Source: an uncultured Candidatus Saccharibacteria bacterium (lineage in GTDB: Bacteria; Patescibacteriota; Minisyncoccia; UBA9983). From it: 64,000 nt of DNA. This document shows positions 3,817-64,000 of this stretch, in pieces; the first letter of the stretch is position 1, and the number at the start of each line of letters is the position of its first letter. Both the position numbers and the translations under genes were made by a program. The stretch is taken from NCBI GenBank assembly GCA_964372755.1, contig CAYJQX010000001.1, forward strand, positions 6,563-70,562. The letters run 5' to 3'. A model generated the notes under the pieces. That model was not told the origin of the DNA and ran no database searches. It saw only the letters and a list, made by a program, of their open reading frames with translations.

Positions 3817-3967
3817 TAGTGAGCGAAGCGAACAAAGCGCGGAGCGAGCCAACTGCTTGGCTCGCGAGAGAGGGCTTGAATGCCGGAGTCATATCAAGTC
3901 AGCAGACGAGATGGCGAGGCGGGGGCGAGAAAATTTGTGAGTGACTGACGAACAAATTATTCGTGCC

Positions 3968-16978: not shown

Positions 16979-17042
16979 AATGACAACTTTTTATTGTTCT
17001 GGTATTATTAAGATATAATTTATTAATAGAAAAATAATTTTT

Positions 17043-17369
17043 ATGCCCCCAAAAACACAAACGCTTCAAAACGACATTGTTACGGCTCTCGGCCTTAACG
17101 ATTTGCCGGAGGAGACTCGTGACGAGCTCATTGCCAAAATGACGGAAGTAGTGATCAAAAGACTGCTTCTCAATATTTTTGAAAAATTATCGGAGGATTC
17201 GGTTGAGGAGTTCGGCAAGCTTCAGACTTCCGGAGATGCGGAAGCTATGGAAGCTTTCTTGAAGGAAAAAATAGAAGATTACGATGGACTAGTGCAGAAA
17301 ACGGTTTCCGATTTTATTACCGAGGTGAAAGGAACAATAGAGACATTAAAAAGTTCCATAAATTCTTAA
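17043..17369 (+). CDS. small acidic hypothetical protein
   Basis: 108 aa, helical and acidic. Sits immediately downstream of the VirD4-like gene. Confidence 0.4.
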   Translation: MPPKTQTLQNDIVTALGLNDLPEETRDELIAKMTEVVIKRLLLNIFEKLSEDSVEEFGKLQTSGDAEAMEAFLKEKIEDYDGLVQKTVSDFITEVKGTIETLKSSINS

Positions 17370-17378
17370 TGATAAAAC

Positions 17379-20009: not shown

Positions 20010-20012
20010 AGA

Positions 20013-20828
20013 ATGAAAGAAGTTGGGGGCGGACCGAAAAAAAAATTAGGTCAGAATTTTCTGACATCGGGCAAGATAGCGGGGGATATTGTATCCTCCG
20101 CTGGTCTTATTTCAAGCGATGTTGTTTTGGAAATCGGTCCGGGCAAGGGATTTTTGACGAAAGAAATTCTTAAAACCGGCGCGAAAATTATCGCTATTGA
20201 AAAAGATAAGGCGCTTGTGTCGATATTAAATTCACTTTTCGCCAGTGAAATTAAAAAAGGCTCTTTGGAGATTATCAGTGGAGATATTCGGGAATTTTTG
20301 AACAACAAGACCCGCGCTCCAAACCGCATTTTACTTACTACGCGCTACAAACTCATTGCTAATATTCCCTACTATCTCACTTCCTACCTCATCACTTCAT
20401 TTTTGAGGCTGTCTAATCCTCCGACAGAGATGATTTTGATGGTTCAAAAAGAAGTGGCGGAGAGGATTATCGCCAAAGACGGCAAAGAAAACCTTTTGTC
20501 TCTTTCAGTCAAATATTATGGCGAGCCGAAAATAGAGAGGCTGGTTAAAGCCGGAAGTTTTTTTCCAAAACCGAAAGTGGACTCCGCCGTTCTTTCCATA
20601 AAGAATATTCGCAAAGAAAATTCAAGGAGGTCAAAAACTTTTTTTAATTTAATAGAAAAAAGTTTTAACCAGAAAAGGAAAAAAATGTTTTCTGTTTTGA
20701 GTCAAAGCATAAAGAAAGAAACCCTTGCGAAAGCTTTTGAAAAGGGCGGTTTTAGCCAGAACATCCGCGCCGAAGATCTCTCGCTGGGTCAATGGAGGCT
20801 TTTGGCCGATTTTATCCCCATTGAATAA
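20013..20828 (+). CDS. rsmA: 16S rRNA (adenine1518/1519-N6)-dimethyltransferase
   Basis: KsgA signature LGQNFL, motif I LEIGPGKGFLT and NIPYYLTS. Confidence 0.85.
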   Translation: MKEVGGGPKKKLGQNFLTSGKIAGDIVSSAGLISSDVVLEIGPGKGFLTKEILKTGAKIIAIEKDKALVSILNSLFASEIKKGSLEIISGDIREFLNNKTRAPNRILLTTRYKLIANIPYYLTSYLITSFLRLSNPPTEMILMVQKEVAERIIAKDGKENLLSLSVKYYGEPKIERLVKAGSFFPKPKVDSAVLSIKNIRKENSRRSKTFFNLIEKSFNQKRKKMFSVLSQSIKKETLAKAFEKGGFSQNIRAEDLSLGQWRLLADFIPIE

Positions 20829-20889
20829 GTTTCTTTTGACGGAAAACAAGGCTGACGCGTGATACAATAATAAGCGGTATCAATATAAA

Positions 20890-21873
20890 ATGAGGATTAC
20901 CGCGTACCTTCCAACCAAAAGAAATGCTTATTGGATTTTGGCCGTTTTGATAATCTCTATCGGCCTTTTGGTGGTGTATCCGAGAAAGAAGATTCCAAAT
21001 TATTCTTATTCTAAAAATCTTTCTGGAATTCTTTCTCAACAAGCCGGAGGAGCAGACGATATAGACGGCGATGGCCTGAAAGATTGGGAAGAGGTTCTTT
21101 GGAAAACGGATCCGAATAGTCCAGATTCGGACAATGACGGCACTTCGGATGGAGAAGAGGTGGCTCTGGGCCGTGATCCGTTAAAACCCGGCCCAGACGA
21201 TATTTTCAACAATCCTCTCGCTTCAAATGTTTTTGTAAACAAATACGATACCGAGACGGAAGGTCTCTCCAGAAGGCTTTTTGCCGAATACTTAACGCTC
21301 AAGAAAGACGGGAGCTTGGATGACGAAACAAAAACGCAAATTATAGAAAGATTCATTAATGATTTGCCGGGACAAGACGGAGCGAAAGACCCTTTCACCT
21401 TGGCTGATTTGAAAATATCAAAAGATAATTCCGCCAGTGCTTACAGGAGGTATGGGAATATTTTAGGGCTTCTTGTGGCGGAAATGACCAAACCGGTAAA
21501 CGAGGAAGAATTGGAAATATTTTCTCGAGCCGTTGAAACAAATAATAATGAAATTTTGAAAAAATTGGATCCGGCCAAAGAAACTTTCAGAGGAATCGCT
21601 TCCACAATATCTCTGATGGAGGTTCCTTCGGGTTTGGCGGAAAATCATTTGACGTTGCTTAATTCTTTAGTTGGCGCCTATTATTCTCTCTCCGCCATGC
21701 AGGAAGTAAATAACGATCCCGCTCTCGCCTTGGGAGGCTTAAACGCTTATCAGTATGAGGTGGAGGTTATTACCGGTTCTTTTAAAGTGATCAGCCAAGC
21801 TGTCAAAAATAAAGGCGTGGTTTATTCTCCCAAAGAAGCGGGCGCTCTTATTTTTGAACTGGGCTCCGTTTAA
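20890..21873 (+). CDS. membrane-anchored hypothetical protein with Asp-rich calcium-binding-like repeats
   Basis: N-terminal TM. DIDGDGLKDWEE and DPNSPDSDNDGTSDGEE resemble thrombospondin type 3 or EF-hand-like D-x-D-x-D-G loops. Confidence 0.4.
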   Translation: MRITAYLPTKRNAYWILAVLIISIGLLVVYPRKKIPNYSYSKNLSGILSQQAGGADDIDGDGLKDWEEVLWKTDPNSPDSDNDGTSDGEEVALGRDPLKPGPDDIFNNPLASNVFVNKYDTETEGLSRRLFAEYLTLKKDGSLDDETKTQIIERFINDLPGQDGAKDPFTLADLKISKDNSASAYRRYGNILGLLVAEMTKPVNEEELEIFSRAVETNNNEILKKLDPAKETFRGIASTISLMEVPSGLAENHLTLLNSLVGAYYSLSAMQEVNNDPALALGGLNAYQYEVEVITGSFKVISQAVKNKGVVYSPKEAGALIFELGSV

Positions 21874-21887
21874 TTTTTGATATTTAA

Positions 21888-23945
21888 ATGAAAATTTTCA
21901 GTAAAAAAATTATTTCCCTTTTTATCGTCTCCTCCATTTTTTTGCAGATGCTTTTGCCTGTTGTTGTTTTGGCGGTGGAAGATGGAGCAAGCTTGGGAGG
22001 AGGAGAAAGCTCGTCCGGTTCCGGAGGAGCTGGCAGTTTGATACCGGGGAATGGTTGCTTCAGCGGAAAGGGCATCATGGGGAGAATAAGAAGTTTTGGC
22101 GAAAGAGTTTTTGGGGGCAAAGAGAAAGAGCAGGGAGCCAAAAATGTTTCCGATTTAGAGTTTAATGTAAGCGAGCTTGAAGCGGCGGCTGAAGAAGAAA
22201 ATGCGGCCAATCTCATTAAAGAGCAGGCTTCTCTTGAGAGGTTTCAAAAAGTTTTTGGCGACAAATTGAAACTCGGCTCGGCGGCTTCCGCTGTTTCCGA
22301 TGCCACCGGAATTTCCGGTTCAAGCGCATCCAGCGCGGCCAAAAGGGGTTTAAGTAGCGCGACTGAATTCGGAGCCAAACTTATTCCTATCCCCGGCGCC
22401 GGGGATGCAATAAGGGGAGCTCTTGGCAAGATTCCCGGTATTGGTGCCGTCTTTGGCGGAGGTCCGCAAGAAACAAAAGAAGTGGACGGCCCTCTTCTTG
22501 ACGCCACCAAGAACCTTTATGAAGTCCAGAAGGAGATGCTAAAAAAACAGGAGGAGACAAGAAAAATTGTTCAGACGGAGTGCGTCAAAAGCCATATTTA
22601 TGATTCCATCGCGTGGTTTGTGGCCAAGCGCATCATCCATAGTTTTACCACTAGCATTGTCGGATGGATAAGCGGGGAAGGCAAATCCGATCCGAAATTT
22701 ATCGTCAATACTCCAGAGTTTTGGAAAGATGTGGCAAACGAAGCCTCCGGTTTGGTCATAGAAGAGTTGGGGGTGGGGGATCTTCTTTGCAAGCCTTTTA
22801 AATTTCAACTCCAGTTTGATTTGAAGTTTAGGCAAAAAAGATTGGATACGAGACTGAAATGTACGGCTGACGACGTGGTGGATAATTTCAGGGATAGTTT
22901 TTCCTACGGCGGGTGGGATAGCTGGCTGAAACTTACAGCCAATCCGCAAAATTATTATTCCGGCGCCTATCTTTCTTCTTTGGACGAAATAGCAAGAAGG
23001 AGACAGGAAGCCGTTGAGGCGGCAAAGACGGATCAGGAAGCGGGGGGAAATTTTATGGGAGTAAGAGTGTGTGTAAACCAAACAGCAAACGGTTTGTGCG
23101 CGCGCTGGGAAACTAGGACTCCCGGAAAAACGGTGAGCGATCTTTTATCCCGTGCTTTAGGGAGCGATATTGCCCAGCTTGAACTGGCCGATGAGTTTAA
23201 CGAAATTGCCGTCGCTTTGGTTAATCGAATGAGAGGCTGGATTGTAACAGGCGGAGGAGGAAACAAAGGACTCCTAAAATTTGACGGGAAAATAGAAGAG
23301 GTGGCTGATTCTTCGGGAACGGGAGGAGGCGGATCCGGACAAACAGGGGGAGGGAACACTTCTTCCGATAATCAAGTAGAGACAAAAAGAGCGGAAATTA
23401 TCTCTCGCTTGGATGCTTATCTTTCAAGAGAGATTGCCTACAGGGACGCAAAACAAAAAATCTTAGACTTTATTTTAGAGAACGAGGGAAGTTACACGGA
23501 CTTAAAATTATGTTATCAGGGACAATTTTTTGTTAATCGCCAGAAGTTTTCCGGTAAAACAAACCCGACAGAAGCTGAAAAGGCGGAATTTGAGAAGGAA
23601 GACGAAAGACTCTCTGGCCTCATTGCCGGAGTGGGCGCCACCACTACCTCAATCTTTGGTCCTCTTGCAAGCGGTGTTCAGACAGAAATAGACCGCTCGC
23701 AAGCAATCATTGATGAGTTTTTTGACGGCAAATCCATCGCCAGAAATGTCACTATACTTGAGGCTTTAAATAGCGTGGAGGCAAATTATTTAAGCGGAGA
23801 GGCGATTAGGAATGTTCATGATGGTCTGGACGTGAAAAACGCGGAAGACGAGCTGGAGAGTTTGAAGAAAACTTTGAGTGAGAAAAGCGTTGAAACAGAA
23901 TTTAACAAATGTTTGGCCGATCTGGAAATCTTAAACAAAAAATGA
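21888..23945 (+). CDS. secreted hypothetical protein (685 aa)
   Basis: Signal peptide MKIFSKKIISLFIVSSIFLQMLLPVVVLA and Gly/Ser-rich linkers. Its stop overlaps the start of the next gene (ATGA). Confidence 0.4.
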   Translation: MKIFSKKIISLFIVSSIFLQMLLPVVVLAVEDGASLGGGESSSGSGGAGSLIPGNGCFSGKGIMGRIRSFGERVFGGKEKEQGAKNVSDLEFNVSELEAAAEEENAANLIKEQASLERFQKVFGDKLKLGSAASAVSDATGISGSSASSAAKRGLSSATEFGAKLIPIPGAGDAIRGALGKIPGIGAVFGGGPQETKEVDGPLLDATKNLYEVQKEMLKKQEETRKIVQTECVKSHIYDSIAWFVAKRIIHSFTTSIVGWISGEGKSDPKFIVNTPEFWKDVANEASGLVIEELGVGDLLCKPFKFQLQFDLKFRQKRLDTRLKCTADDVVDNFRDSFSYGGWDSWLKLTANPQNYYSGAYLSSLDEIARRRQEAVEAAKTDQEAGGNFMGVRVCVNQTANGLCARWETRTPGKTVSDLLSRALGSDIAQLELADEFNEIAVALVNRMRGWIVTGGGGNKGLLKFDGKIEEVADSSGTGGGGSGQTGGGNTSSDNQVETKRAEIISRLDAYLSREIAYRDAKQKILDFILENEGSYTDLKLCYQGQFFVNRQKFSGKTNPTEAEKAEFEKEDERLSGLIAGVGATTTSIFGPLASGVQTEIDRSQAIIDEFFDGKSIARNVTILEALNSVEANYLSGEAIRNVHDGLDVKNAEDELESLKKTLSEKSVETEFNKCLADLEILNKK

Positions 23946-26224
23946 GAAGAAAAATTTTAAAATCCGACATTTTTGTTTTTACCGGTTTTTTTGTCCTGAT
24001 TTTATTTTTCTTTTACGGGCCGTTTTCGGCGCATACCACTTACGCAGCATTTGAATTTATTGATATTGGGGCAGGGGTTTTAAAAAAATTAGTTGCCGGC
24101 ATCGGCGGAATAGTCATCCATATCGCCTCTTGGTTTTTAGCCCTTTCGGGATGGATTTTTGATTACACGATACAATTTTCCATTCTTAATTATTTCGGCG
24201 AGGGCGGATTTGTAGAAAAAGGGTGGACGACGGTGAGAGATCTCTCCAATGTGGTTTTTATATTCATTCTTTTGTACGCGGCTTTCATGACTGTCTTGGG
24301 GATGGGCGGAGTGGATATTAAAAAAGTGGTGGCCAATGTGGTCTTGATTGCCCTACTGGTTAATTTCAGTTTGGTTATCACAAAGGTGGTCATAGACGCC
24401 AACAACATCTTGGCGGTGGAGTTTTACAACAAACTTAACAACATTGAGGATGCCAGCAACCCCGGAAAAAAACTCACTCTTTCTGAAGGAATATCAAATG
24501 CTCTAAGCCCGCAGAATTTTTTTAAGCAACCAGAAGACAATTCTTCGTTTTGGGGAGAAATATTTTCCCGCGGGGCAGAAGCTGACGAGGAATCAACCCT
24601 GATGCAGATAGCCATAAGCACCATTTTTGGCTCAATATTCATTTTGGCTCTGGCTTTCGTGCTTTTGGCCGGAGGGCTAATGTTTATTCTCCGCACCGCC
24701 GCTCTGTGGCTTGTTATGATTCTCTCTCCCGCCGCTTTTGTTTGCTACGCTGTTCCGGGAGCGGAAAAATTTTTCACCAAATGGAAAGGGCATTTGATCA
24801 ACCACGCCCTTTTTGCGCCGGCCTATATGTTTTATCTCTATGTGGTCGTCAAAATTGTTTCCGAGTCCAATCTTCTCTCTTCAACGGGCAGGGAAAACGT
24901 TCATTTGAGTGCGGACGCCAAAGACCTGGACACGGCCTCCATGGGTCTGATTTTCAAATACCTAATCGTTCTTTTTCTCCTCACAATGGCTTTAAAACTC
25001 GCGAGTGATATGGGCGCTTATGGCGCTTCGGCGGCCAATAAATATTTTGATAAAGGCAAGGGTTGGCTGACCGGTAAGGCGAAAAGAATCAGTCAAAAAG
25101 TTCCCGGAGGCGCCTCTAGAGTTTTGTTGAGCAACCAAAAAACAAGACAAGCTCTGCAGAGTTTTGCGGCCAGCAGTCCGAGGGTCGGGGGGGCTATTTC
25201 AAGAACAGTTCGCTCTGGCGCCAAGCTCGGCTTAAACGAAGAGCTTATCAAAGCGAGAGCAGAGACAGCGAAATCCCTGACACCGGAACAGCAAGCAAAA
25301 TATTTCGCAAAGCTTGGCAGAGTGCCTTTTGCCGGCCGTTTGCAAGGGGCAAGTTCTAATGTTCCAGGCCTTAAGCAAGCGGCTTTTGTCCTAAGTCCTG
25401 TTGCAGCAATTATGAATTTTCTTGGCGGGGATAACCAGTCTCAAAAGAGAATGCTTGAAGAAATGTCCTCAAGCCAGAGAAGAAAATTTGTTGCTGAAGC
25501 TGACAAGGATACTGGCGCCAGAGCGCTCGTTAATAAATATTTGTTGGAGAAAGAAATCTTGGACAAACTCTCTTCAGAGGAGAAAATGGAATTTTATGCC
25601 AGAGGAGAAAATGATCCCACTATTGCCAAGGATCCGAGCAATGTAGAGTTCAGAAAAGGAATGGAAAAGAAAATTCTTGAAAACACGGAAGAATTCCAGA
25701 AACTTTCTATCCGTGACAGGGTGGAATTTGGAAAAATGATCGATAAAATGGGTGGAGATGTTGCTTTATTCAATAAGGCTGTCGATAAAATGTCAAAAGA
25801 AGACAAAGAGAATTATACTAAAACAAAAAACGAGGTTGGCAGGAAGGAAAAAATCGGAGATTTTCTTCTTAAGACAGATCCCATTTCTGGTAATCCCATT
25901 TCTGTGCCGGATCTTTCGGATAAAAGCGTCTTGGGTCGTTTCAACAACATAAAACCGGATGAGATTCAAACTTTAAGAGACGATCTGTTTACAGACAGCA
26001 ACGTTGATTACATGTTGGATAATCTTAGAACCGAACATTTCAATAAAATCATGGCTCGTGGCGATGAATCTTCCGATAAATTTATTGAAAGAGTTATCGC
26101 TAAAGCCCCCGGAGCCAAAAGTCCGGATGATGTCAGCAAGGCTTGGAAAACAATTTCTCCGTCTGTATCCGCTTGGGCTATCAGTCCGGCCGGACGATAT
26201 GCGCTAGAATCAAGATTGCCATAA
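23942..26224 (+). CDS. polytopic membrane protein, VirB6/TrbL-like candidate
   Basis: ATG overlaps the upstream TGA (translational coupling). At least six hydrophobic helices in the N-terminal 400 aa, then a long hydrophilic C-terminal domain, which is the VirB6-type architecture. Confidence 0.45.
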   Translation: MRRKILKSDIFVFTGFFVLILFFFYGPFSAHTTYAAFEFIDIGAGVLKKLVAGIGGIVIHIASWFLALSGWIFDYTIQFSILNYFGEGGFVEKGWTTVRDLSNVVFIFILLYAAFMTVLGMGGVDIKKVVANVVLIALLVNFSLVITKVVIDANNILAVEFYNKLNNIEDASNPGKKLTLSEGISNALSPQNFFKQPEDNSSFWGEIFSRGAEADEESTLMQIAISTIFGSIFILALAFVLLAGGLMFILRTAALWLVMILSPAAFVCYAVPGAEKFFTKWKGHLINHALFAPAYMFYLYVVVKIVSESNLLSSTGRENVHLSADAKDLDTASMGLIFKYLIVLFLLTMALKLASDMGAYGASAANKYFDKGKGWLTGKAKRISQKVPGGASRVLLSNQKTRQALQSFAASSPRVGGAISRTVRSGAKLGLNEELIKARAETAKSLTPEQQAKYFAKLGRVPFAGRLQGASSNVPGLKQAAFVLSPVAAIMNFLGGDNQSQKRMLEEMSSSQRRKFVAEADKDTGARALVNKYLLEKEILDKLSSEEKMEFYARGENDPTIAKDPSNVEFRKGMEKKILENTEEFQKLSIRDRVEFGKMIDKMGGDVALFNKAVDKMSKEDKENYTKTKNEVGRKEKIGDFLLKTDPISGNPISVPDLSDKSVLGRFNNIKPDEIQTLRDDLFTDSNVDYMLDNLRTEHFNKIMARGDESSDKFIERVIAKAPGAKSPDDVSKAWKTISPSVSAWAISPAGRYALESRLP

Positions 26225-26254
26225 TAATATAGTAGAGAATAATTATTTTTAAAG

Positions 26255-27010
26255 ATGAAAAAACATTCTTTTGAAGACATAAAAAAAGCTTACGCTTCTT
26301 TGCCGGAAGATTTGATTGAAGCGGGGTCTTCTGTTCAAACCACAGAAGCTTTAAGGGACATAGGCAAAAAATATGGGCTGATGATGGATCAGGCCGGGGA
26401 AATGGCGAGCGAAGCCGGTTCCGTCATCCTCGGCCTTACGCCTGTCCAGGAATTTGTTCCCAATCTTCAGGAAAGACTTGGAGTTTCTAAAGACATTGCC
26501 ACAAAGATAGCGGAAGACATCAGCGCTCAAGTTTTTTCCAAAGTAAGGGAGTCGATGAAAAAGATTCATTCAACTCACGGCGGAGATCAAGCTCTTTTAG
26601 AGGTGAAAGAAAATGCTCCCGCGGAAAAAAAGGATGATGTGCTAAAACATTTGGATGAAGACGCGGAAATAGAAAAGGATTTGAAAACAATGGTTGTTTC
26701 CAAAAACACGGAAGAAGAAAAAAAGAGATTTCCTGTGAGTGATTTAATTAATGCTTCTTTAGGTCTGGAGAGCAGGGAAAGAGAAGAATCTTTTCCCATA
26801 AACGACCTTATTAATGCATCCCTTCCTCCAGAGAATTTGCCGATCAATGGCTCTTCGAATTTACCACGACAGGAAAAAACTTCATCTACGCCTGTCCCTA
26901 AACCTCCGGTAAAACCAGCCGTTCCTCAAATAACCAGAATGCCGAAAGAAGAAAAAACACTGAATGTTCCCCTAAAGACAAAAGATCCCTACAGAGAACC
27001 AATAAGTTAG
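26255..27010 (+). CDS. hypothetical protein with tandem FP(V/I)SDLINASL repeats
   Basis: RFPVSDLINASLGLESREREESFPINDLINASLPPE. Pro-rich C-terminus. Confidence 0.4.
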   Translation: MKKHSFEDIKKAYASLPEDLIEAGSSVQTTEALRDIGKKYGLMMDQAGEMASEAGSVILGLTPVQEFVPNLQERLGVSKDIATKIAEDISAQVFSKVRESMKKIHSTHGGDQALLEVKENAPAEKKDDVLKHLDEDAEIEKDLKTMVVSKNTEEEKKRFPVSDLINASLGLESREREESFPINDLINASLPPENLPINGSSNLPRQEKTSSTPVPKPPVKPAVPQITRMPKEEKTLNVPLKTKDPYREPIS

Positions 27011-27034
27011 AAATAACAACTAAATCTAAAAGCG

Positions 27035-27466
27035 ATGAAATTTCAAGTTCCGCAATTCATAGAAGTTGAGACAAAAATATTCGGGCCGCTGACTTTGAAG
27101 CAGTTTTTGTATTTAGCCGGAGGCGCCGGCGCTTCTATCGTGCTCTACAGTTTGCTCCCTTTCTTTTTGATGATTATTTTCGCTGCGCCGATTGTCGCCC
27201 TCGCCCTCGCCCTCGCTTTTTACAAGCTAAATAATCAGCCTTTTGTGAGGGTGCTTGAAAATGCCATTAAGTTTTATCTGTCAGGCAGGCTTTTTTTGTG
27301 GAAGAAGACGCCAAATGAGGACAATAAATCAGTTTCTGTTGATAAAGAAGGAATATTGAAAACTGCGGGAATACAAACAAGCGGAACAACAGGTTATGTG
27401 CCGAAATTAACGCAAAGCAAATTAAAAGATTTATCCTGGAGTTTGGATATTAATAAAGAAACATAA
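27035..27466 (+). CDS. PrgI-family (VirB3-like) small membrane protein of Gram-positive-type T4SS
   Basis: MKFQVPQFIEVETKIFGPLTLKQFLYLAGGAGASIVLYSL matches the PrgI family N-terminal consensus (K.P.D.E...IFG.LT.RQF.YL) followed by a TM hairpin. Confidence 0.6.
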   Translation: MKFQVPQFIEVETKIFGPLTLKQFLYLAGGAGASIVLYSLLPFFLMIIFAAPIVALALALAFYKLNNQPFVRVLENAIKFYLSGRLFLWKKTPNEDNKSVSVDKEGILKTAGIQTSGTTGYVPKLTQSKLKDLSWSLDINKET

Positions 27467-27468
27467 CT

Positions 27469-27602
27469 CGACTCCAATACGCGAATTGACTCGAATGACA
27501 CTAATAGTATTAAAGCCTAACTTCTTTCATCCGCGTCATTCGTGCGCATTATTCCCTCCTTTGCTAGGAAGCTACGGGCGGGCAAGCGTGTATTAGCGTC
27601 GG
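27469..27602 (+). repeat. MITE-like repeat copy 2 (with an internal insertion of about 35 nt)
   Basis: CGACTCCAATACGCGAATTGACTCGAATGACACTAATAGTATTAAAGCCTAACTTCTTTCATCCGCGTCATTCGTGCGCATTATTC ... CGTGTATTAGCGTCGG is collinear with copy 1 at 7163-7262. Confidence 0.55.
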
Positions 27603-27608
27603 GTAAAA

Positions 27609-27624
27609 TGTTATAATTAAATCG
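27609..27624 (+). promoter_or_regulatory. extended -10 TGTTATAAT positioned 7 nt before the ATG (leaderless-type promoter)
   Basis: TGTTATAAT taaatcg ATG. The same layout recurs at many genes in this window. Confidence 0.45.
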
Positions 27625-28284
27625 ATGGCTATAAGTTCACAAGCAACACAAGTATTTGTTCCCATAAAAGAAATTCGTGAAGGAGTGGTTATTTTAAAAG
27701 ACGAATCGTTCAGAATGATTTTAATGTGCTCCACTCTGAATTTTGCTCTTAAATCTGAAGACGAGCAGAGCGCCATTGTCATGCAATATCAAAATTTTTT
27801 AAACTCCCTTGATTTTTCGGTGCAATTTTTTATCCAGTCGAGAAAATTAAACATTAATCCATACCTTACTACCCTTGAAGAGGCAAGAGTTCAACAGCCG
27901 AACGAGCTTTTGAAAATCCAAACAAAAGAATACATAGATTTTATTAGAAATTTTGTTACAACGACCAATATAGTGGAGAAAACTTTTTATGTGGTTGTGC
28001 CTTATGCTTCCTCCATTGCCATGCCCACAAAATCTTCGAACCCCATAAGCGGAATTCTTTCTATTTTTTCTCGGAACAAAGATAATCTGGGGCAGGCTGA
28101 GGCAATGCGTTTTGCCGAAGCAAGACTGCAAATTCAGCAAAGAGCAGACGTGGTTTCTCAAGGCTTGGCTGGAGCCGGCATTCGTTCCAAACAGCTTGGA
28201 ACGGAGGAGTTGATCGAGCTCTATTACAAACTTTTCAATCCGGGCGAGCTGGAAAAAGAATCTCTTAAAAGCATAAAATCATAA
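27625..28284 (+). CDS. virB4: VirB4/TrbE/CagE-family T4SS ATPase, N-terminal domain fragment
   Basis: VFVPIKEIREGVVILKDESFRMILMCSTLNFALKSEDEQSAIVMQYQNFLNSLDFSVQFFIQSRKLNINPYL matches the conserved VirB4 N-terminal domain. It ends with TAA one nt before the next ATG. Confidence 0.65.
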   Translation: MAISSQATQVFVPIKEIREGVVILKDESFRMILMCSTLNFALKSEDEQSAIVMQYQNFLNSLDFSVQFFIQSRKLNINPYLTTLEEARVQQPNELLKIQTKEYIDFIRNFVTTTNIVEKTFYVVVPYASSIAMPTKSSNPISGILSIFSRNKDNLGQAEAMRFAEARLQIQQRADVVSQGLAGAGIRSKQLGTEELIELYYKLFNPGELEKESLKSIKS

Positions 28285-28285
28285 C

Positions 28286-30154
28286 ATGAGCATATTAGAT
28301 TCCTTAAAAAATAATTCTGTCACCCCAGCTCCTCAGACGCCGCAACCTTCTTTGCAAAATCCTTCTGTGGCAAGCGGAGAAATATTGCCGGTCATACCTC
28401 AAAATATTTATGAATATGGCGTTTTAAAATTGCAGGACGTTATTGCTCCGTCGGCCCTGGAAGTAGCTTCAAACCACATAAAAATCGGCGAGAAGGTAGC
28501 AAGGGTGATTTTTGCCATGTCTTATCCGAGATTTTTATCATCGGATTGGTTTTCTCCGATAGTTAATCTCGATAAAGTTTTTGATGTTTCTATTTTTGTT
28601 CATCCGATAGATACCGCTTCAGTTTTGCATCAAATGCAGAGAAGGGTGGCGGAAGTGCAATCTCAAATTAACGAGAGAGAATCCAAAGGATTGGTGCGCG
28701 ACCCGATGCTCGATACCGCTTATCAAGATCTGGAGAATTTACGCGATGACCTCCAACAGGCCACTGAAAAATTATTTAATCTAGGGCTTTATGTTACGGT
28801 TTATGCCGACTCACTGGACGAATTGGATAAAATAGAAACGGAAGTGCGCCAGATTATGGAATCCAAGCTTATTTATGTAAAACCGGCTCTTTTCCAACAG
28901 CTTGACGGGCTCTACACGGTCTTTCCTTTTGAGACGGATAAATTGGACATTCATAATCAGATGAATTCGTCTCCTCTCTCTTCTCTTTTTCCTTTTGTCT
29001 CTTTTGATCTTTCTTCCGACAGAGGAATTCTTTATGGAGTAAACAGACACAATAACGGCCTTGTTCTTTTTGATCGATATTCTCTGGAAAATTACAACTC
29101 GGTAGTTTTTGCCAAGTCTGGTTCGGGAAAATCTTACGCGACCAAATTGGAAATTTTGCGTACCCTTATGTTTGATACGGACGTGATCGTGATAGATCCG
29201 GAGAGGGAATATGAATATCTGGCGGAATCGGTAGACGGACAATATTTCAGCATCTCTCTTTCATCCAAACATCATATTAATCCTTTTGATCTGCCTCCTG
29301 TGGGCGAAGGAGAATCCCCCTCGGATGTTTTGAGAAGCAACATCATTTCCCTCGTGGGACTCTTTCGTTTGATGTTGGGCGGTCTTACGCCGGAGGAAGA
29401 CTCTGTTATTGACAGAGCGATTACCGAAACTTACGCTTCTCGCGATATCACGCCGGACACGGATTTTTCTACTCTTCCTCCACCGACTTTGTCGGACTTA
29501 GAAATTATTTTAGCCAGTATGGAGGGAGCGGAGTCTTTGGCCCAGCGCTTGGCCAAGTTTACTCGCGGGACTTGGGCCGGCTTTATCAACCAGCCGACCA
29601 ATGTTGACGTGAACCGAAAGTTTGTCGTTTTTTCCGTTCGCGACATGGAAGACGAGCTTCGTCCGATCGCGATGTATATAGTTATGCACTATATCTGGAA
29701 CATGGTCAGGAAAAATATCAGGAAAAGACTTTTGGTGGTGGATGAGGCTTGGTGGATGATGAAATCCGAAGACACGGCTTCTTTTCTTTTTGGCATCGCC
29801 AAACGAGGCAGAAAATATTTTTTGGGATTGCTCACTATCACTCAAAACGTGGAAGACTTTTTAAGTTCTCCTTACGGAGTGCCAATCATAACAAACTCTT
29901 CTATGCAGTTGCTGTTGAAGCAATCGCCTGCTTCCATAGAGATAGTGAAAAAGACTTTCAATCTTACAGAGGAGGAGAAATTTCTGCTTTTGGAATCAGA
30001 CGTGGGGGAGGGTATCTTTTTTGCGGGAGCCAAACATGTGGCCATAAAAGTCATTGCTTCATATACAGAAGATCAGATTATTACTTCCGATCCGGCCCAG
30101 CTTTTGGCCATAAAAAAAGCGCGAGAGGAAATTGGCAACCCCGTTACCGCTTGA
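28286..30154 (+). CDS. virB4: VirB4/TrbE/CagE-family T4SS ATPase, central and C-terminal ATPase domain
   Basis: Walker A VVFAKSGSGKSYAT and Walker B RLLVVDEAWWMM. The LTITQNVEDF motif is typical of VirB4. Confidence 0.75.
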   Translation: MSILDSLKNNSVTPAPQTPQPSLQNPSVASGEILPVIPQNIYEYGVLKLQDVIAPSALEVASNHIKIGEKVARVIFAMSYPRFLSSDWFSPIVNLDKVFDVSIFVHPIDTASVLHQMQRRVAEVQSQINERESKGLVRDPMLDTAYQDLENLRDDLQQATEKLFNLGLYVTVYADSLDELDKIETEVRQIMESKLIYVKPALFQQLDGLYTVFPFETDKLDIHNQMNSSPLSSLFPFVSFDLSSDRGILYGVNRHNNGLVLFDRYSLENYNSVVFAKSGSGKSYATKLEILRTLMFDTDVIVIDPEREYEYLAESVDGQYFSISLSSKHHINPFDLPPVGEGESPSDVLRSNIISLVGLFRLMLGGLTPEEDSVIDRAITETYASRDITPDTDFSTLPPPTLSDLEIILASMEGAESLAQRLAKFTRGTWAGFINQPTNVDVNRKFVVFSVRDMEDELRPIAMYIVMHYIWNMVRKNIRKRLLVVDEAWWMMKSEDTASFLFGIAKRGRKYFLGLLTITQNVEDFLSSPYGVPIITNSSMQLLLKQSPASIEIVKKTFNLTEEEKFLLLESDVGEGIFFAGAKHVAIKVIASYTEDQIITSDPAQLLAIKKAREEIGNPVTA

Positions 30155-57717: not shown

Positions 57718-58164
57718 ATGCCAGTTTTAGCCGAAAATCGTAAAGCCAGATTTGATTATGAAATCATTGAAGTTTTTGAATCGGGCTTAAAACTTACAGG
57801 TAGCGAAGTGAAAGCTGTTCGGGATGGAAAGGCCTCTATTGCGGGCGCTCATGTCATTATTCGCGGCGGGGAAGCTTATATTGTGGGGGTATCCATACAG
57901 CCATACCAGCCTTCAAATAAGTCTTCTTTGGTGGAAAAAGAAAGAACCATCACTCTTCTTCTAAACAAAAAGGAAATAGAATATCTTTTTGGGAAAACGG
58001 AAAAAACTGGTTTGACAATTGTGCCTATACGTGTTTATACTAAAGGGCCGAGAATAAAGCTGGAAATAGCTCTTTCTCGAGGCAAGAAAAAGAGCGATAA
58101 GAGGGAAACCATAAAAAAAAGAGACGATGAAAGGATTTCCGCTCGCGCTCTAGTACGGGAGTGA
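57718..58164 (+). CDS. smpB: SsrA-binding protein SmpB
   Basis: ENRKARFDYEIIEVFESGLKLTGSEVKAVRDGKASIAGAHV matches the SmpB signature. TGGTATAAT lies 6 nt before the ATG. Confidence 0.9.
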   Translation: MPVLAENRKARFDYEIIEVFESGLKLTGSEVKAVRDGKASIAGAHVIIRGGEAYIVGVSIQPYQPSNKSSLVEKERTITLLLNKKEIEYLFGKTEKTGLTIVPIRVYTKGPRIKLEIALSRGKKKSDKRETIKKRDDERISARALVRE

Positions 58165-58228
58165 CAATTGGTATCGACAAGAAATGTACTTTTATATGCG
58201 CATCGAGCAACATCTCAAATCTCGTAAA

Positions 58229-58516
58229 TCTGGGGGATAAAAACTCAAATGTAGCATCACCTTTTGCTACTCCGGCTCCCGCATACGCGTAAAGTCGGCG
58301 TTTCTTTCCGCAATTCTTGGTAGCGGAGAGAGGCGTTAATTGCCAAGATCGAAATATCACTTTGATTGATAGATGATGTTTCTAAACAAAAATCAATCAC
58401 GGCTTTAAAGATTTGGCCCACTTTCTACTTTAAGGTTTAAAAAATAAAGTGAAGCTACATGCGTAGAAATATTCAAGGAACCTTCTTGCACGTGGGTTCG
58501 AACCCCACCACTTCCA
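58229..58516 (+). ncRNA. ssrA: candidate tmRNA (ssrA) region; ends not resolved
   Basis: Immediately downstream of smpB. A tRNA-like T arm GTGGG TTCGAAC CCCAC (58492-58508) is followed by a 7-nt acceptor-like strand CACTTCC plus A (58509-58516). Upstream candidate 5' end GGGGGAT (58229), hairpin GTAGCA..TGCTAC and a short Ala-rich frame GCT ACT CCG GCT CCC GCA TAC GCG TAA (ATPAPAYA*). The intrinsic terminator at 58580-58607 closes the region. No clean 5' acceptor partner could be found by eye. Confidence 0.35.
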
Positions 58517-58579
58517 CTCGACTCGTTTTGCTTTGGAAAGCAAAACTCGCTCGTGGTAAACCACGTGAGCGATAAAAAT

Positions 58580-58607
58580 ACCCAACCGTAACGGTTGGGT
58601 ATTTTTG
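58580..58607 (+). terminator. rho-independent terminator
   Basis: ACCCAACCG taa CGGTTGGGT ATTTTTG. Confidence 0.7.
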
Positions 58608-58699
58608 AGTTGAGTGCCCCGAGGTTTTGTCGAGGGGCAGTATTCGACGAGTCGAGCGGGCTGTTTACCATGAAGTATCCGAGGGGATATAATTTATCT

Positions 58700-58966
58700 A
58701 TGTATTTTGTTTATATGATTATGAATTCTAGTAGAGATCTTTATGTCGGAGTTACTAAAAATCCAAATGAAAGAGTAAATTTTCATAACAAAAAACAAGG
58801 AGCGAATTTTACTAAAAATAGACTAGAATTCAAGATAGTTTTTCTTGAAGAGTATAAAAGTTTTAAAGAAGCAAGGCAAAGAGAAATCCAAATTAAAAAA
58901 TGGCGAAGAGACAAGAAAGAACGTTTAATAAGTCTTTACAAACAAGGATTAAACACAAAGAAATAA
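58700..58966 (+). CDS. small GIY-YIG nuclease-superfamily protein (YhbQ/UPF0213-like)
   Basis: MYFVYMIMNSSRDLYVGVTKNPNERVNFHN matches the GIY-x10-YIG...R...H...N pattern. TATAAT lies 6 nt before the ATG. Confidence 0.6.
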   Translation: MYFVYMIMNSSRDLYVGVTKNPNERVNFHNKKQGANFTKNRLEFKIVFLEEYKSFKEARQREIQIKKWRRDKKERLISLYKQGLNTKK

Positions 58967-59041
58967 TAGCGGTAATCAAGAGTGGGTTTCCGAGTCGTTC
59001 CAACCCTCGGAGTTACCTCTATTATTTGATAATATAGGCTT

Positions 59042-59671
59042 ATGAAAAATCTTGCTTCAATTTCAAAAACAAAAAGATTTGCTTTCATAGATGTTCAAAA
59101 CACAGCGAGTACAACTGCTAAATTGCTCGGATTTATTATTGATTGACATAAACTTAGTGTCTATCTGAAAGAAAAATGGAATTGTGAAAAAGTTTTCTTT
59201 TATTCTGGTATTGACGAAGGGGATACAGAGTCTGCAAAAGAATTCGATTCTCTGTCAAAAAGTGGCTGTATTGTAAAAGCTAAAACCGTTTTTTCTTACA
59301 AGAAACCGGACAAAACAATATCTATAAAATGTGTTGATTGCGGAAAAGATAATGTTGAAGTTGTCGACATGGGATATAATAGAAAATCAAATTGTGATGT
59401 TGATTTGACTGTTGATGCTATGGAAATAGCCAGCACTAAAACAGAATTTCTTATTTTTACCGGTGACGGTGATTTTGATTATCTTATTCGTAAAGTGGTG
59501 GAAAGAGGAACAAAAGTTTATATAGTTTCTTCCAATGCTGGAGTTCGAAAACCTGGAATAAATACAAAACGCCTTTCTACTAGGCTTAAAAGCCTAGTAG
59601 ATGGAAATAGGGGAAAAATTAACCTTATTGATATCAATAGTTGGAAAATGAGGATAAAGAAAGAGATATAA
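59042..59671 (+). pseudogene. NYN/LabA-like (PIN-related) domain gene interrupted by an in-frame TGA at 59144-59146
   Basis: A single frame reads MKNLASISKTKRFAFIDVQNTASTTAKLLGFIID * HKLSVYLKEKWNCEKVFFYSGIDEGD...NCDVDLTVDAMEIAS...EFLIFTGDGDFDYLIRKVVERGTKVYIVSS. The NYN/LabA conserved blocks span the stop. TGA is a genuine stop elsewhere in this window (for example pilB). Confidence 0.5.
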
Positions 59672-59855
59672 TACAAATCGCCACGAAGCGTGGCGATTTG
59701 CGAATGACATCAGCATACTATCAAAATCAGGGAAAAAGTCAAGGTTAGTGTAGATAAAACACCGGAAACACTCAATCTCGCCCAATTGAAAGTTTATCGT
59801 TTTCGTGACTTATTATTTGCCTTTCTGCCCCTAAAATCCTATACTCTTTAGGTAT

Positions 59856-61718
59856 ATGGAAAGCTTAAAATCCTTTTCCCGCCATATTGTGGCCGCCCTT
59901 TTGATTCTGATGATTATGGCCGGTTTGTATTCCATAATTGTCGGACGCGAAGCCAAAAAACCGGAGACTCTGACTCTTTCGGAGGTTGTTGGCGCTATCA
60001 AAGGAGGCAATATCAAAAATATAGAAATCAAAGGAAATGATTTAAAAATTGTTTTTGGTGATGACTCTGTAAAGGAAGCAAAGAAAGAAAGCGATGCGTC
60101 TTTGACTGATACTCTCGCCAACTACGGACTTTCTAAAGAGGAAATTTCCAAAGTGGGAATTTCCATAAAAGAACCCTCAGGTTTTCTTTTCTGGATTGGA
60201 AATATCTTGCCCTTTCTTGCTCCCATTATAATTATCCTTGTTTTTTTCTGGCTGGCTTCAAGGCAGGTCAAGGGGGCAAGCGGACAAGCTTTTTCTTTCG
60301 GGCAATCAAGAGCGAGGATTGCTCTGCCGGATGATCAAAAACCAAAAACTACTTTCAAAGATGTGGCGGGCGTGAAAGAAGCCAAAGAGGAACTTCTGGA
60401 AATCGTGGATTTTTTGAGAAGTCCGGAAAAATTTCTTTCAATCGGAGCAAAAATTCCCAAAGGCGTATTGTTGATGGGCGCGCCGGGGACAGGAAAAACT
60501 CTTTTGGCCCGCGCGGTAGCGGGCGAAGCAGAAGTGCCGTTTTTTCATATTTCCGGTTCGGAATTCGTGGAAATGTTTGTGGGGGTGGGCGCTTCTCGCG
60601 TGCGTGATCTGTTTAAGATGGCTAAACGCGCCGCTCCTGCCATAATTTTTATAGACGAGATAGACGCGGTGGGAAGACACAGGGGTTCTGGTATGGGAGG
60701 GGGACATGACGAAAGAGAGCAGACCCTAAATCAGATATTGGTGGAAATGGATGGATTTGAGCCGACGGAAAAGGTGATTGTAATGGCAGGGACAAACAGG
60801 CCGGATGTGTTGGATCCTGCTCTTCTTCGGCCGGGCAGGTTTGACAGAAGAGTAATTTTGGATTTGCCGGATATAAAAGAAAGAGAAGAGATATTGCAGA
60901 TTCATTCAGTCGGGAAACCGCTTGCGAAAGATATTGTTTTAAGAGTCATTGCCGAGCGCACTCCGGGGTTTTCCGGCGCTGATCTCATGAACTTAATGAA
61001 CGAAGCGGCAATTTTAACCGCTCGGCAAAACAGGAAAGAAGTGGAGCAAGATGATCTTATTCGTTCTATCGAAAAAGTAATGCTGGGGCCGGAGAGAAAA
61101 AGCCGGTTACTGACCGCGAAAGAAAAAAAGATTACCGCTTATCATGAAGCCGGGCACGCTCTCGTCTCTTCTGTTTTGCCCCACGCCGATCCGGTGCATA
61201 AAGTCTCAGTTGTCTCAAGAGGGAGAGCTGCCGGCTACACGCTAAAACTTCCTCTTGAAGAGAAACATCTTCATTCAAGAGCCCATTTTCTGGACGATTT
61301 GGCGGTTTCTATGGGCGGTTTTGTGGCGGAGAAATTAATTTTCGGAGATATGACTACGGGAGCTTCAAACGATATTCGCGTTTCGTCTGATTTAGCGCGT
61401 GCGGTAGTCACAAAATACGGCATGTCGGAAAAAATCGGGCCAGTCGCTTATGGTGAGGACGAGCCGGCTCTTTTTCTGGGAAAAGATTTTGGGCATGGTA
61501 AAAACTACTCCGAAGAAACAGCCAAAGAAATTGATGCCGAGGTGACCAAACTGATGAAAGACGCCGAAAGGCGGGCGCGGGATGTCATCACCAAACACAA
61601 AGACGCGCTGGAAGCCATTACAAAAACTCTGATGGAAAAAGAAACGATCGAACAGGCGGATTACGAAAAAATAATATCCTCTTTTGGAATTACGCCTAAG
61701 AGAGTAGAGATAGTATAG
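59856..61718 (+). CDS. ftsH: ATP-dependent zinc metalloprotease FtsH
   Basis: Walker A GAPGTGKT, the SRH, the zinc motif HEAGHAL, and an N-terminal TM pair. Confidence 0.9.
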
Positions 61719-61791: not shown

Positions 61792-62457
61792 ATGGCAAGA
61801 AAAGAAGATAAAATAAAAGCAATAAGTCTCCGGCTTAAAGGCCAAAGTTACAGCCAAATAAAATCTAAAATTAAAATAAGTAAAAGCACCTTGAGCAATT
61901 GGCTTCAAGATTATCCGCTTTCAGAAAAGAGAATAAGAGAACTTCGCGATTTAAATCCCCAAAGAATAGAGAGGTATAGGGCAACTAGAGCTTTGCAGAA
62001 AAAAACTCGCTTGGATGAGATTTATGCAAAAGAGAAGAAAGCGCTTCTGCCTTTTTCAAAACGAGACCTTTTTATCGCAGGTCTTTTCCTGTATTGGGGA
62101 GAGGGAGGGAAAACCGCCAATGCACAGTTGACTTTAACAAATACAAAACCAAGTATTATCAAGTTTTTTATTTTTTGGGCGGACAAAGTTTTAAAAATAA
62201 ATAAAAAAGATATTGTATTTCGTCTGCATATTTTTAAGGATATGAGTCCCGAGAAAGAGATATTTGCTTGGTCTAAAGAGTTAAAAGTTTCTAAAAATCA
62301 GTTTAGGAAATGTTTTGTAAAGAAAACTTTAAGTTCTAGCGTGACATACAAAAGAAGCTTTAGGCATGGGACATGTGACGCGATAATCAGGGGTGCTCGA
62401 TTAGCAGAAAAAGTTTTAATGTCACTTAAAGCGATTGAAGATAGTTTCCGAAATTGA
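61792..62457 (+). CDS. HTH + LAGLIDADG-like endonuclease family protein (paralog of 1866-2540)
   Basis: HTH QSYSQIKSKIKISKSTLSNWLQD. LAGLIDADG-like block FIAGLFLYWGEGGKTAN. The stop lies 18 nt before the tRNA at 62476. Confidence 0.5.
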   Translation: MARKEDKIKAISLRLKGQSYSQIKSKIKISKSTLSNWLQDYPLSEKRIRELRDLNPQRIERYRATRALQKKTRLDEIYAKEKKALLPFSKRDLFIAGLFLYWGEGGKTANAQLTLTNTKPSIIKFFIFWADKVLKINKKDIVFRLHIFKDMSPEKEIFAWSKELKVSKNQFRKCFVKKTLSSSVTYKRSFRHGTCDAIIRGARLAEKVLMSLKAIEDSFRN

Positions 62458-62475
62458 TATAGTCAGCAAATAAGC

Positions 62476-62547
62476 GCGTCCGTAGCTCAATGGTAGAGCA
62501 GTCGTCTTATACACGACTGGCTGGGGGTTCGAGTCCCTCCGGACGCA
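62476..62547 (+). tRNA. tRNA with anticodon TAT (UAU; would decode AUA = Ile); CCA not encoded
   Basis: GCGTCCG TA GCTC AATGGTA GAGC A GTCGT CTTATAC ACGAC TGGCT GGGGG TTCGAGT CCCTC CGGACGC A. The cloverleaf is regular. Anticodon stem GTCGT/ACGAC is perfect and the loop CTTATAC puts TAT at positions 34-36. Confidence 0.65.
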
Positions 62548-62563: not shown

Positions 62564-62585
62564 ATGCGTCTGGAGGGACTCGAAC
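62564..62585 (+). repeat. inverted copy of the tRNA 3' end, forming a 22-bp hairpin with the tRNA T-arm/acceptor 3' strand
   Basis: ATGCGTCTGGAGGGACTCGAAC is the reverse complement of the tRNA 3' end GTTCGAGTCCCTCCGGACGCAT (62528-62549). One G-U position. A 14-nt spacer separates them. Confidence 0.6.
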
Positions 62586-62716
62586 AGGAAAGGGGTCGGG
62601 CGATTTTTAAGCGTAAAAATCGGTTCAAAATCTGCTAATTTTAAACTTCCTTATTCTTCTATTTTTCCCGTGGAGGAAAAATACGAAACCGTGGGTTTAG
62701 TAGGAGCGAAGCGACG

Positions 62717-62739
62717 TTTGATTCCCTCCGGACTCATAT
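62717..62739 (+). repeat. direct degenerate copy of the tRNA(UAU) 3' end
   Basis: GTTTGATTCCCTCCGGACTCATA versus tRNA GTTCGAGTCCCTCCGGACGCATA gives 20 of 23 identical, about 170 nt downstream of the tRNA. Confidence 0.5.
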
Positions 62740-62805
62740 AATATTCTCTCCCTGCCCTTGACTTCACAACACCAGATATGATAGAAATTTTACTGGAAAT
62801 ACCAA

Positions 62806-62878
62806 AGCGGGTTCGTTCAAACGGTCCAGGACGCCTTTCTCCCCGGAAGGAAATAGGGTTCAAATCCCTACCCGCTTT
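62806..62878 (+). other. tRNA-like element / possible pseudo-tRNA (T arm and acceptor fold; D arm does not)
   Basis: AGCGGGT ... TAGGG TTCAAAT CCCTA CCCGCTT T. The acceptor (7 bp) and T arm are good. A candidate anticodon arm CCTTT CTCCCCG GAAGG exists, but no D arm could be folded. Followed by the terminator at 62881-62920. Confidence 0.3.
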
Positions 62879-62880
62879 TA

Positions 62881-62920
62881 CCCACAATCATTTTTTATAA
62901 TTGTGGGTTTTTTATTTTTT
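62881..62920 (+). terminator. rho-independent terminator
   Basis: CCCACAAT cattttttat AATTGTGGG TTTTTTATTTTTT. Confidence 0.7.
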
Positions 62921-62941
62921 AAATCGTATAATGGATAAGAA

Positions 62942-63767: not shown

Positions 63768-63989
63768 CTACTCAAAATGAATTTCTTTGTGCCTCTTTTC
63801 TATAATCTGGAGAAGAGGTTTATTTTTTTCCAATTCAGGATCGTTTGATAAAATTAATTTCGCTTCCTCTCTGGCCGCTTCCACCATGCGAATATTTTTT
63901 ATCGCTTCCATGCCGACATCCGATATTCCCCACTGCTTTACCCCATCCAAATTTCCCGCGCCCCTAAATTTTAGGTCATATTCGGCCAA
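63768..63989 (-). CDS. small hypothetical protein (may extend beyond window end)
   Basis: 73-aa ORF at the window edge. No family recognised. Confidence 0.3.
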   Translation of the reverse strand: MAEYDLKFRGAGNLDGVKQWGISDVGMEAIKNIRMVEAAREEAKLILSNDPELEKNKPLLQIIEKRHKEIHFE

Positions 63990-64000
63990 TTCAAATCCAT

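Follow-up and report, generated by a model that had tools for sequence, protein, structure and literature searches.

A tRNA-Ile(UAU) gene next to ftsH in a CPR bacterium, a probable lysidine-independent decoder of AUA

Telling AUA from AUG is one of the classic problems posed by the genetic code. TilS is generally regarded as indispensable and almost universal among bacteria, and its use as a target for antibacterials has been discussed. M. mobile and other bacteria lacking tilS read AUA by means of a tRNA-Ile(UAU) (PMC3575796). In the mycoplasma model of Taniguchi et al. (2013), this tRNA goes back to a CAT gene that underwent a C-to-T change at position 34; in M. mobile, U34 is unmodified, Arg865 of IleRS is the adaptation, and the ribosome rejects AUG (PMC3575796). 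In the known cases, U34 is accepted through an Arg/Lys substitution in IleRS or by a eukaryote-type IleRS. Bacterial tRNA-Ile(UAU) genes have been called "rare cases" (bioRxiv 2026), and the published lists comprise 9 to 17 genomes (PMC3575796, PMC8450103). No relevant account of tRNA-Ile(UAU), lysidine, tilS, or tRNA modification was found in the searchable literature on CPR, Patescibacteria, or Saccharibacteria.

Here, a tRNA gene with the anticodon UAU was analyzed together with its surroundings in a Saccharibacteria contig; the window refers to the whole stretch of DNA studied, 64 kb in length. The gene probably encodes a functional minor tRNA-Ile of a CPR bacterium, the encoded UAU of which reads AUA as isoleucine without conversion to lysidine (LAU) by TilS.

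The tRNA-Ile(UAU) gene and the meaning of AUA

Scanning of the whole window with ARAGORN returned a tRNA-Ile(tat) at exactly the position listed in Table 1. The Rfam model RF00005 covered the gene from end to end with 73.5 bits (E 3e-14, posterior 1.00), which was the top score of any tRNA in the window, and a covariance model of the family (R1) gave 92.6 bits. The tRNA consists of the acceptor stem GCGTCCG/CGGACGC with discriminator A73, the D arm GCTC-AATGGTA-GAGC, the anticodon arm GTCGT-CTTATAC-ACGAC, the variable loop TGGCT, and the T arm GGGGG-TTCGAGT-CCCTC. All four stems were free of mismatches, and the structure of minimum free energy of the isolated tRNA was the cloverleaf (-30.3 kcal/mol). 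There is no doubt about the register of the anticodon because C32, U33, UAU, and A37 were, like A73, invariant in 61 of 61 homologous UAU genes. Members of the Ile2 class, the substrates of TilS, carry CAU; the window tRNA has TAT in its place, so that it is not a TilS substrate.

Table 1. Positions of the tRNA gene, its signals, and neighboring features in the window
Feature	Coordinates	Strand	Description	Evidence
tmRNA	58157-58519		104 bits; start 8 nt before smpB stop	
GIY-YIG nuclease ORF	58595-58966		Between smpB and ftsH	
Truncated NYN-domain ORF	59369-59671		Profile positions 73-125 of 145 only	
ftsH	59856-61718	+	Upstream synteny anchor; no tilS before it	ORF translation
221-aa HTH + LAGLIDADG-like ORF	61792-62457	+	Insert between ftsH and tRNA	Pfam, HTH only
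Promoter-like TTGAAG-17-TATAGT with TG extension	62435-62463	+	In 3' end of upstream ORF	Consensus scan
tRNA-Ile(UAU) gene	62476-62547	+	72 nt; compact 7-nt D loop; CCA not encoded	ARAGORN, Rfam
Anticodon TAT (positions 34-36)	62508-62510	+	Loop C32-U33-UAU-A37-C38	Sequence, Rfam alignment
Inverted copy of T arm and acceptor 3' half	62564-62585	+	21/22 nt; 15 nt downstream of tRNA	Repeat search
Direct copy of tRNA 3' end and 3 flanking bases	62716-62738	+	87%; 189 nt downstream	Repeat search
recG 3' end	63768-64000	-	Convergent downstream anchor; gene leaves window	Pfam RecG_dom3_C

The IleRS identity set of Escherichia coli comprises A73, A37, A38, U12-A23, C29-G41, and C4-G69. Of the E. coli Ile identity elements, A73, A37, A35, U36, U12-A23, and C29-G41 were found in the window tRNA, which departs in C38 and U4-A69 from a set that may not apply to the IleRS of CPR. 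The promoter-like site listed in Table 1 stops 12 nt short of the gene. The number of such sites found by the consensus scan of the region was not above shuffle expectation, and as the promoter of the tRNA this site is only a lead.

Codon usage was determined for 52 window ORFs with 18,005 codons. ATA made up 21.3 per 1000 codons and 27.5% of the Ile codons; it was commoner than ATC or ATG, and its share of Ile codons was unchanged in housekeeping genes. The meaning of AUA was assessed at the 24 AUA sites of the window genes ftsH, smpB, and infC by counting the orthologue residues that are specified by codons other than AUA. These residues were isoleucine in 53%, leucine in 20%, valine in 15%, and methionine in 3% of cases. 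For comparison, ATT sites of the window aligned with isoleucine in 43% and ATG sites with methionine in 39%. One AUA site in FtsH was occupied by isoleucine in 86 of 86 orthologues. As judged from these alignments, AUA is isoleucine in the source genome, and since AUA sites align with isoleucine, the tRNA can be regarded as the cognate decoder of this codon. Binning of the AUA share in ftsH by GC3 revealed no consistent difference between lineages of the UAU and the TilS type.

The first-pass annotation, made from the letters of the window, had described a regular cloverleaf with TAT at positions 34-36 and had assigned the tRNA to isoleucine and the AUA codon. Both assignments are upheld. ARAGORN and Rfam agreed on the coordinates, ARAGORN returned the anticodon TAT, and the predicted fold was the cloverleaf; AUA proved to be frequent, as shown by the codon counts, and to align with isoleucine in orthologues.

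The UAU family, the ftsH slot, and TilS in relatives

GTDB species genomes were scanned for the exact D arm of the window tRNA with either C or T at position 34, which yielded at least 120 matches and TAT-bearing tRNAs in at least 33 GTDB species. Among the matches listed, the MAGs with UAU tRNAs belonged to Saccharibacteria and to Uhr-, Kaiser-, Nomura-, Adler-, Taylor-, Doudna-, Veblen-, Yanofsky-, and Gottesmanbacteria; further labels among the matches listed were Levyibacteriota, Paceibacterota, Minisyncoccia, and Parcubacteria/Patescibacteria, and two MAGs were without group name. A second sample, independent of the tRNA pattern, consisted of 80 FtsH-anchored metagenome loci and contributed 27 additional UAU tRNAs. 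The collection finally comprised 61 tRNA(UAU) genes, nearly all of them from CPR/Patescibacteria MAGs. They are 72-74 nt long, and CCA is encoded in only 10 of the 61. At position 38, C is present in 38 genes, A in 15, and T(U) in 8, which amounts to a pyrimidine in 46/61. In an alignment of 34 UAU sequences, 99.4% of the stem cells were paired, and 14 of the 17 pairs outside the search pattern varied on both sides. Covariation amounted to 0.713 versus 0.18 in shuffles, and pairing fell to 31-46% in slid-partner controls. Such strong compensatory covariation in the stems indicates that the gene is under strong structural selection.

Among the matches listed, three compact UAU tRNAs came from MAGs labeled outside the CPR, namely Bathyarchaeia (L003), Desulfotomaculum (L057), and "Gammaproteobacteria" (L039). 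The first two have a common acceptor stem and T arm and resemble the gene from Gottesmanbacteria (L033). The three could be due to binning contamination, horizontal transfer, or independent origin.

In the window, ftsH is followed by the 221-aa HTH ORF, the tRNA gene, and, after some 1.2 kb of sequence specific to the window, the 3' end of recG. As found by tblastn, at least 15 named CPR loci have ftsH directly 5' of the tRNA, and recG adjoins the tRNA in at least 10 CPR loci. The named CPR UAU loci also have infC and smpB further upstream and recG in convergent orientation downstream. Homologues of the HTH ORF occupied the position between ftsH and the tRNA in 8 loci, i.e. in only some relatives; in relatives without the inserted ORF, the tRNA begins 9-130 nt past ftsH. 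Among the FtsH-anchored loci, 72 had enough downstream sequence, and in 22 of these a tRNA(UAU) was present within 1.5 kb of ftsH. In a neighbor-joining tree of FtsH, the window clustered with all named UAU-bearing CPR genomes, and the tRNA was found in about 42 of the 49 loci of this clade, most of the others being contigs that end soon after ftsH. The arrangement ftsH -> tRNA(UAU) <- recG is a conserved slot across several CPR classes.

TilS was sought in the 64-kb window with Pfam and tblastn, and no matching ORF was detected; ARAGORN found no tRNA-Ile2(CAU) in the window. An IleRS adapted to U34 would have Arg/Lys at the position of E. coli Trp905 or belong to type 2; no ORF matching IleRS was present in the window, and a search by HIGH/KMSKS motifs gave no IleRS in any CPR locus examined. 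In 7 FtsH-anchored loci, a TilS gene (Pfam PF01171) ends just before ftsH, and the TilS_C and/or the TilS substrate-binding domain was recognized in 3 of them. None of these 7 tilS-ftsH loci had a UAU tRNA, and all fell outside the UAU clade of the FtsH tree. The zero overlap between tilS-ftsH and UAU loci (7 versus 27 of 80) corresponds to a hand-calculated hypergeometric P of ~0.05, which is confounded by phylogeny. In tblastn searches of all loci collected with six TilS proteins, a TilS-like gene was detected in 18 loci, 0 of which had a UAU tRNA, and the 61 UAU loci gave no TilS-like match over their total of 675 kb, the window included. Because about one tilS is expected per Mb if placed at random, zero matches in 675 kb are statistically weak, and the argument for a replacement rests on the tree and on synteny.

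The named matches of two protein searches with TilS included Candidatus Moranbacteria/Moraniibacteriota, the "Parcubacteria group", "candidate division Kazan", and the "Patescibacteria group"; none was from a UAU-bearing phylum. On this evidence, some CPR lineages (Moranbacteria, Kazan) retain TilS. The TilS proteins of these CPR lineages are short, ~315-345 aa; they contain a PP-loop domain, whereas the substrate-binding domain was matched weakly at best (L153, L168, L197, L199, L202-L209; P0001-P0081, P0121-P0157). They lack the TilS_C domain, which is present in the 450-500-aa enzymes that these lists also include from other phyla.

In TilS-retaining CPR, tRNAs with the anticodon CAU were found close to tilS and ftsH. 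The order is tilS - ftsH - tRNA-Val(GAC) - tRNA(CAU) in L202 (Moranbacteria GCA_030645735.1), whereas tilS - ftsH is followed by tRNA(CAU) and tRNA-Val(GAC) in L208 and L209; in the Kazan-like locus L168, a CAU tRNA lies directly 5' of tilS-ftsH. These tRNAs have the Ile-type acceptor stems GGGCCCA, GGGACCA, and GGGCGCG together with A73 and A38. On a covariance model built on 57 UAU tRNAs they reached 78.5-83.9 bits, compared with 80-95 bits for true UAU members, 68 bits for elongator, and 51 bits for initiator tRNA-Met, a ranking only suggestive as to ancestry because many high-scoring CAU tRNAs had been picked with the D-arm pattern of the scan and tRNA-Val(UAC) also scores 77-79 bits. Median identity to the UAU family was 0.71 for the CAU tRNAs linked to tilS/ftsH and 0.64 for tRNA-Val, the value within the family being 0.73. 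By these measures, the CAU tRNA near tilS/ftsH is tRNA-Ile2-like and has a body very similar to that of the UAU family.

Three further statements of the first-pass annotation bear on this comparison. A genomically encoded UAU anticodon had been called rare, which applies to the cultured bacteria surveyed (17 genomes, PMC8450103) and fails for this lineage with its at least 33 GTDB species and 27 of 80 FtsH-anchored loci. UAU decoding, "rare in bacteria", looks widespread in CPR. The idea that AUA is decoded by a strategy independent of lysidine agrees with a window devoid of tilS and with relatives in which tilS-ftsH goes along with CAU and not with UAU tRNAs. The suggested loss of tilS stands for the window and the site upstream of ftsH, and TilS-bearing relatives are without UAU; for the whole genome, absence is only inferred.

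Sequences around the tRNA gene and in the rest of the window

The last 22 nt of the tRNA recur in two copies downstream of the gene (Table 1). For a read-through precursor, the structure of minimum free energy was a 22-bp hairpin between the 3' half of the tRNA and the inverted copy (-62.5 kcal/mol, z -7.5). According to this prediction, the inverted copy would out-compete the cloverleaf in the unprocessed transcript and could interfere with folding. It occurred only in this window among the 61 UAU loci, and similar direct copies of the 3' end were present in 5 of the 61. The direct copy resembles, by its sequence, an att-type integration scar.

The ORF inserted upstream of the tRNA belongs to a family of HTH proteins of 220-290 aa with an N-terminal HTH of the transposase/resolvase type and a conserved "GLxLYWGEGxKT...NSDP" core. 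The window holds this copy and another at 1866-2540 (+), which are 28% identical to each other; the former lies 19 nt from tRNA-Ile(UAU) and the latter about 90 nt from tRNA-Val(UAC). Homologues were found in L009, L044, L087 (two), L120, L145, L149 (two), L156 (two), L179, and L180, and all 12 have a tRNA gene within 2-81 nt of their end (7 Ile-UAU, 3 Gly-GCC, 2 Val). Profile matches to the LAGLIDADG homing endonuclease I-DmoI were weak (E ~0.01-0.02), and Pfam recognized the HTH only. The family looks like a mobile, homing endonuclease-like gene that targets sites adjacent to tRNA genes.

ARAGORN also reported a "tRNA-Gly(ccc)" at 62805-62878 (+). This candidate was not accepted; it had no Rfam tRNA match even at E <= 10. 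On the UAU model it gave 18 bits from the acceptor and T arm only. The region 62805-62925 was predicted to adopt a cloverleaf-like fold with a 5-nt "anticodon" loop (z -4.2), and an intrinsic terminator, a 9-bp stem at 62880-62908 followed by a T run, comes directly after 62805-62878. No copy of the element 62805-62925 was found in 209 loci. As modeled, it is a structured tRNA-like RNA. Another ARAGORN call, tRNA-Leu(gag) at 3733-3817 (+) with a long variable arm, remained below the Rfam gathering score in the whole-window scan. Its score of only 23 bits on the UAU model is what a class II tRNA should give, and the gene is probably real.

The window has a GC content of about 40% and carries a small set of housekeeping genes for L19, NusA, PGK, TIM, NDK, L20, L35, IF3, SmpB, tmRNA, and FtsH, as well as type IV pilus genes, ComEC, and a T4SS-like cluster. 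The latter, a conjugation-like cluster at 14594-30154, includes a VirD4/TraG-like coupling ATPase (14594-16978), a PrgI-like protein (27035-27466), and a TraC/VirB4-like ATPase split into two parts (27625-28284 and 28286-30154), interleaved with very large ORFs that have no Pfam match (17379-20009, 21888-23945, and 23909-26224). The smpB-ftsH stretch (58157-59856) was different in each relative examined.

Origin of the UAU gene and comparison with known AUA decoders

From synteny and sequence comparison, the most likely reading is that the tRNA(UAU) corresponds by position to tRNA-Ile2(CAU), as its orthologue with an exchange of C34 to U, tilS being gone from its ancestral site. The ancestral CPR arrangement would have been tilS-ftsH with a tRNA-Ile2(CAU) nearby. 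The C34-to-T exchange would have arisen in the CAU gene of a lineage from which most CPR groups descend, and tilS would afterwards have been lost from the place upstream of ftsH. The IleRS of the UAU lineage would have to accept U34, and the ribosome, a modification, or the anticodon loop would have to limit misreading of AUG by U34. Effects of positions 32-38 on decoding are the general basis of the idea that position 38 serves for tuning, and the replacement of A38, the base of the CAU orthologues, by C or U in 46/61 UAU genes is a feature specific to the family and a candidate for such a change.

The tRNA could also be a redundant second reader of AUA in a genome that has tilS and tRNA-Ile2(CAU) elsewhere, a role proposed for the UAU tRNAs of Lactobacillus casei/plantarum, Cyanothece, and Ferrimonas. 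UAU and tilS do co-occur in other bacteria (PMC3575796), TilS exists in some CPR lineages, and the view of the source genome comprised 64 kb. However, no locus had both systems (UAU in 0/18 TilS loci, TilS in 0/61 UAU loci), the CAU tRNA adjoins tilS or ftsH in TilS-bearing CPR, the named TilS matches of both searches included none from UAU-bearing phyla, and the conserved site 5' of ftsH was free of tilS throughout the UAU clade. We therefore consider redundancy unlikely. Still less probable is a descent from a tRNA other than Ile2(CAU), for instance recruitment of tRNA-Val(UAC) by a C36-to-U or of tRNA-Thr(UGU) by a G35-to-A exchange. Recruitment of a tRNA took place in a tilS deletion strain of Bacillus subtilis (PMC3919564), and in one locus (L087) the UAU, Val(UAC), and Val(GAC) tRNAs have the same acceptor stem, GGGCGCG. 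Position and acceptor-stem type are the main grounds for an Ile2 ancestry, given that tRNA-Val(UAC) reaches 77-79 bits on the UAU model. The CAU tRNAs beside tilS/ftsH nevertheless outscore it (78.5-83.9 bits) and are more similar to the family (identity 0.71 versus 0.64 for Val), and the acceptor stems of the L202 CAU and the L179 UAU tRNA are identical. The impression of a tRNA-Thr-like body that might have been recruited by the G35-to-A exchange was dropped: the compact D loop that hinted at Thr is not kept in the syntenic orthologues, whose D loops are ordinary, and the nearby CAU tRNA is of the Ile2 type.

That an element or phage brought the tRNA(UAU) as cargo appears very improbable, even though the HTH/LAGLIDADG-like ORF abuts the gene and direct and inverted copies of its 3' end lie downstream. 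The order ftsH-tRNA-recG is kept in several CPR classes whether or not the ORF is present, a scan of viral contigs with a pattern of the tRNA body free of the anticodon gave 0 matches, GC content is unremarkable, and the parts that look mobile lie beside the tRNA rather than containing it. We give hardly any credence to an identity other than isoleucine (AUA recoded, e.g. to methionine) or to a pseudogene. At C38 and U4-A69 the tRNA differs from the Ile identity set of E. coli, and a hairpin with the inverted copy downstream could trap the precursor; against this, AUA sites show isoleucine in 53% and methionine in 3% of cases and include invariant Ile sites, and the gene combines perfect stems with the best tRNA score of the window and strong covariation of its family.

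Decoding of AUA by a descendant of tRNA-Ile2(CAU) is thus the preferred reading for the window. For the source lineage, the tRNA(UAU) itself is ordinary, and the interesting part is the pattern at the level of lineages. Whether most CPR exchanged TilS and lysidine for a tRNA-Ile(UAU) in the ftsH slot with the usual pyrimidine 38, including Saccharibacteria, many Parcubacteria/Paceibacteria, Uhr-, Doudna-, and Veblenbacteria, and at least some Microgenomates, is in our estimation evenly balanced. If they did, lysidine-independent decoding of AUA would be standard in a large part of bacterial diversity rather than a curiosity of a few parasites, and it would imply matching adaptations of IleRS and of AUA/AUG discrimination that are still undescribed. 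The CPR offers a natural contrast between UAU lineages and sisters having tilS-ftsH and a nearby tRNA-Ile2(CAU), by which the acceptance of U34 by IleRS, the block on isoleucine at AUG, and the role of the change from A38 to a pyrimidine become testable; cultured Saccharibacteria are a possible source of tRNA for such experiments. In annotation, a CPR MAG without Ile2 or TilS should not be counted as incomplete on that account.

The canonical system of tRNA-Ile2(CAU) and TilS serves the same codon and amino acid, and the bodies of CPR CAU tRNAs reach 78-84 bits on the UAU model; it differs in that lysidine is needed there, whereas here UAU is encoded and tilS was seen neither in the window nor in any UAU locus. 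Lactobacillus casei and Lactobacillus plantarum, Cyanothece, and Ferrimonas keep tRNA-Ile(UAU) and tilS together (PMC3575796), in contrast to the CPR loci, where this pairing did not occur (0/18 and 0/61, counts that refer to loci and not to whole genomes). In Bifidobacterium and Neorickettsia, as apparently in the present case, tRNA-Ile(TAT) replaces Ile2(CAT) and tilS is missing (PMC3575796; PMC8450103), but there the use of U34 is explained by a horizontally acquired type-2 IleRS (PMC3575796; PMC8450103). Nanoarchaeum equitans and Korarchaeum cryptofilum are likewise reduced or deep-branching organisms in which UAU replaces a decoder with a modified C (PMC8450103); they are archaea, and the system replaced is that of TiaS and agmatidine (PMC8450103). 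The tRNA-Ile2(UAU) of M. mobile resembles the window tRNA in its encoded UAU, in the lack of a visible tilS, in the reduced genome, and in the proposed origin by a C34-to-T exchange. It represents a single species, whereas the tRNAs of CPR, for the most part compact (72 nt) and with a pyrimidine as the usual base 38, occur across a whole radiation. Judged by its sequence, the tRNA(UAU) of the window would be a decoder of the M. mobile type and hence of a known kind; the apparently CPR-wide spread, the fixed slot near the sister Ile2(CAU), and the pyrimidine at position 38 apparently go beyond the searchable literature.
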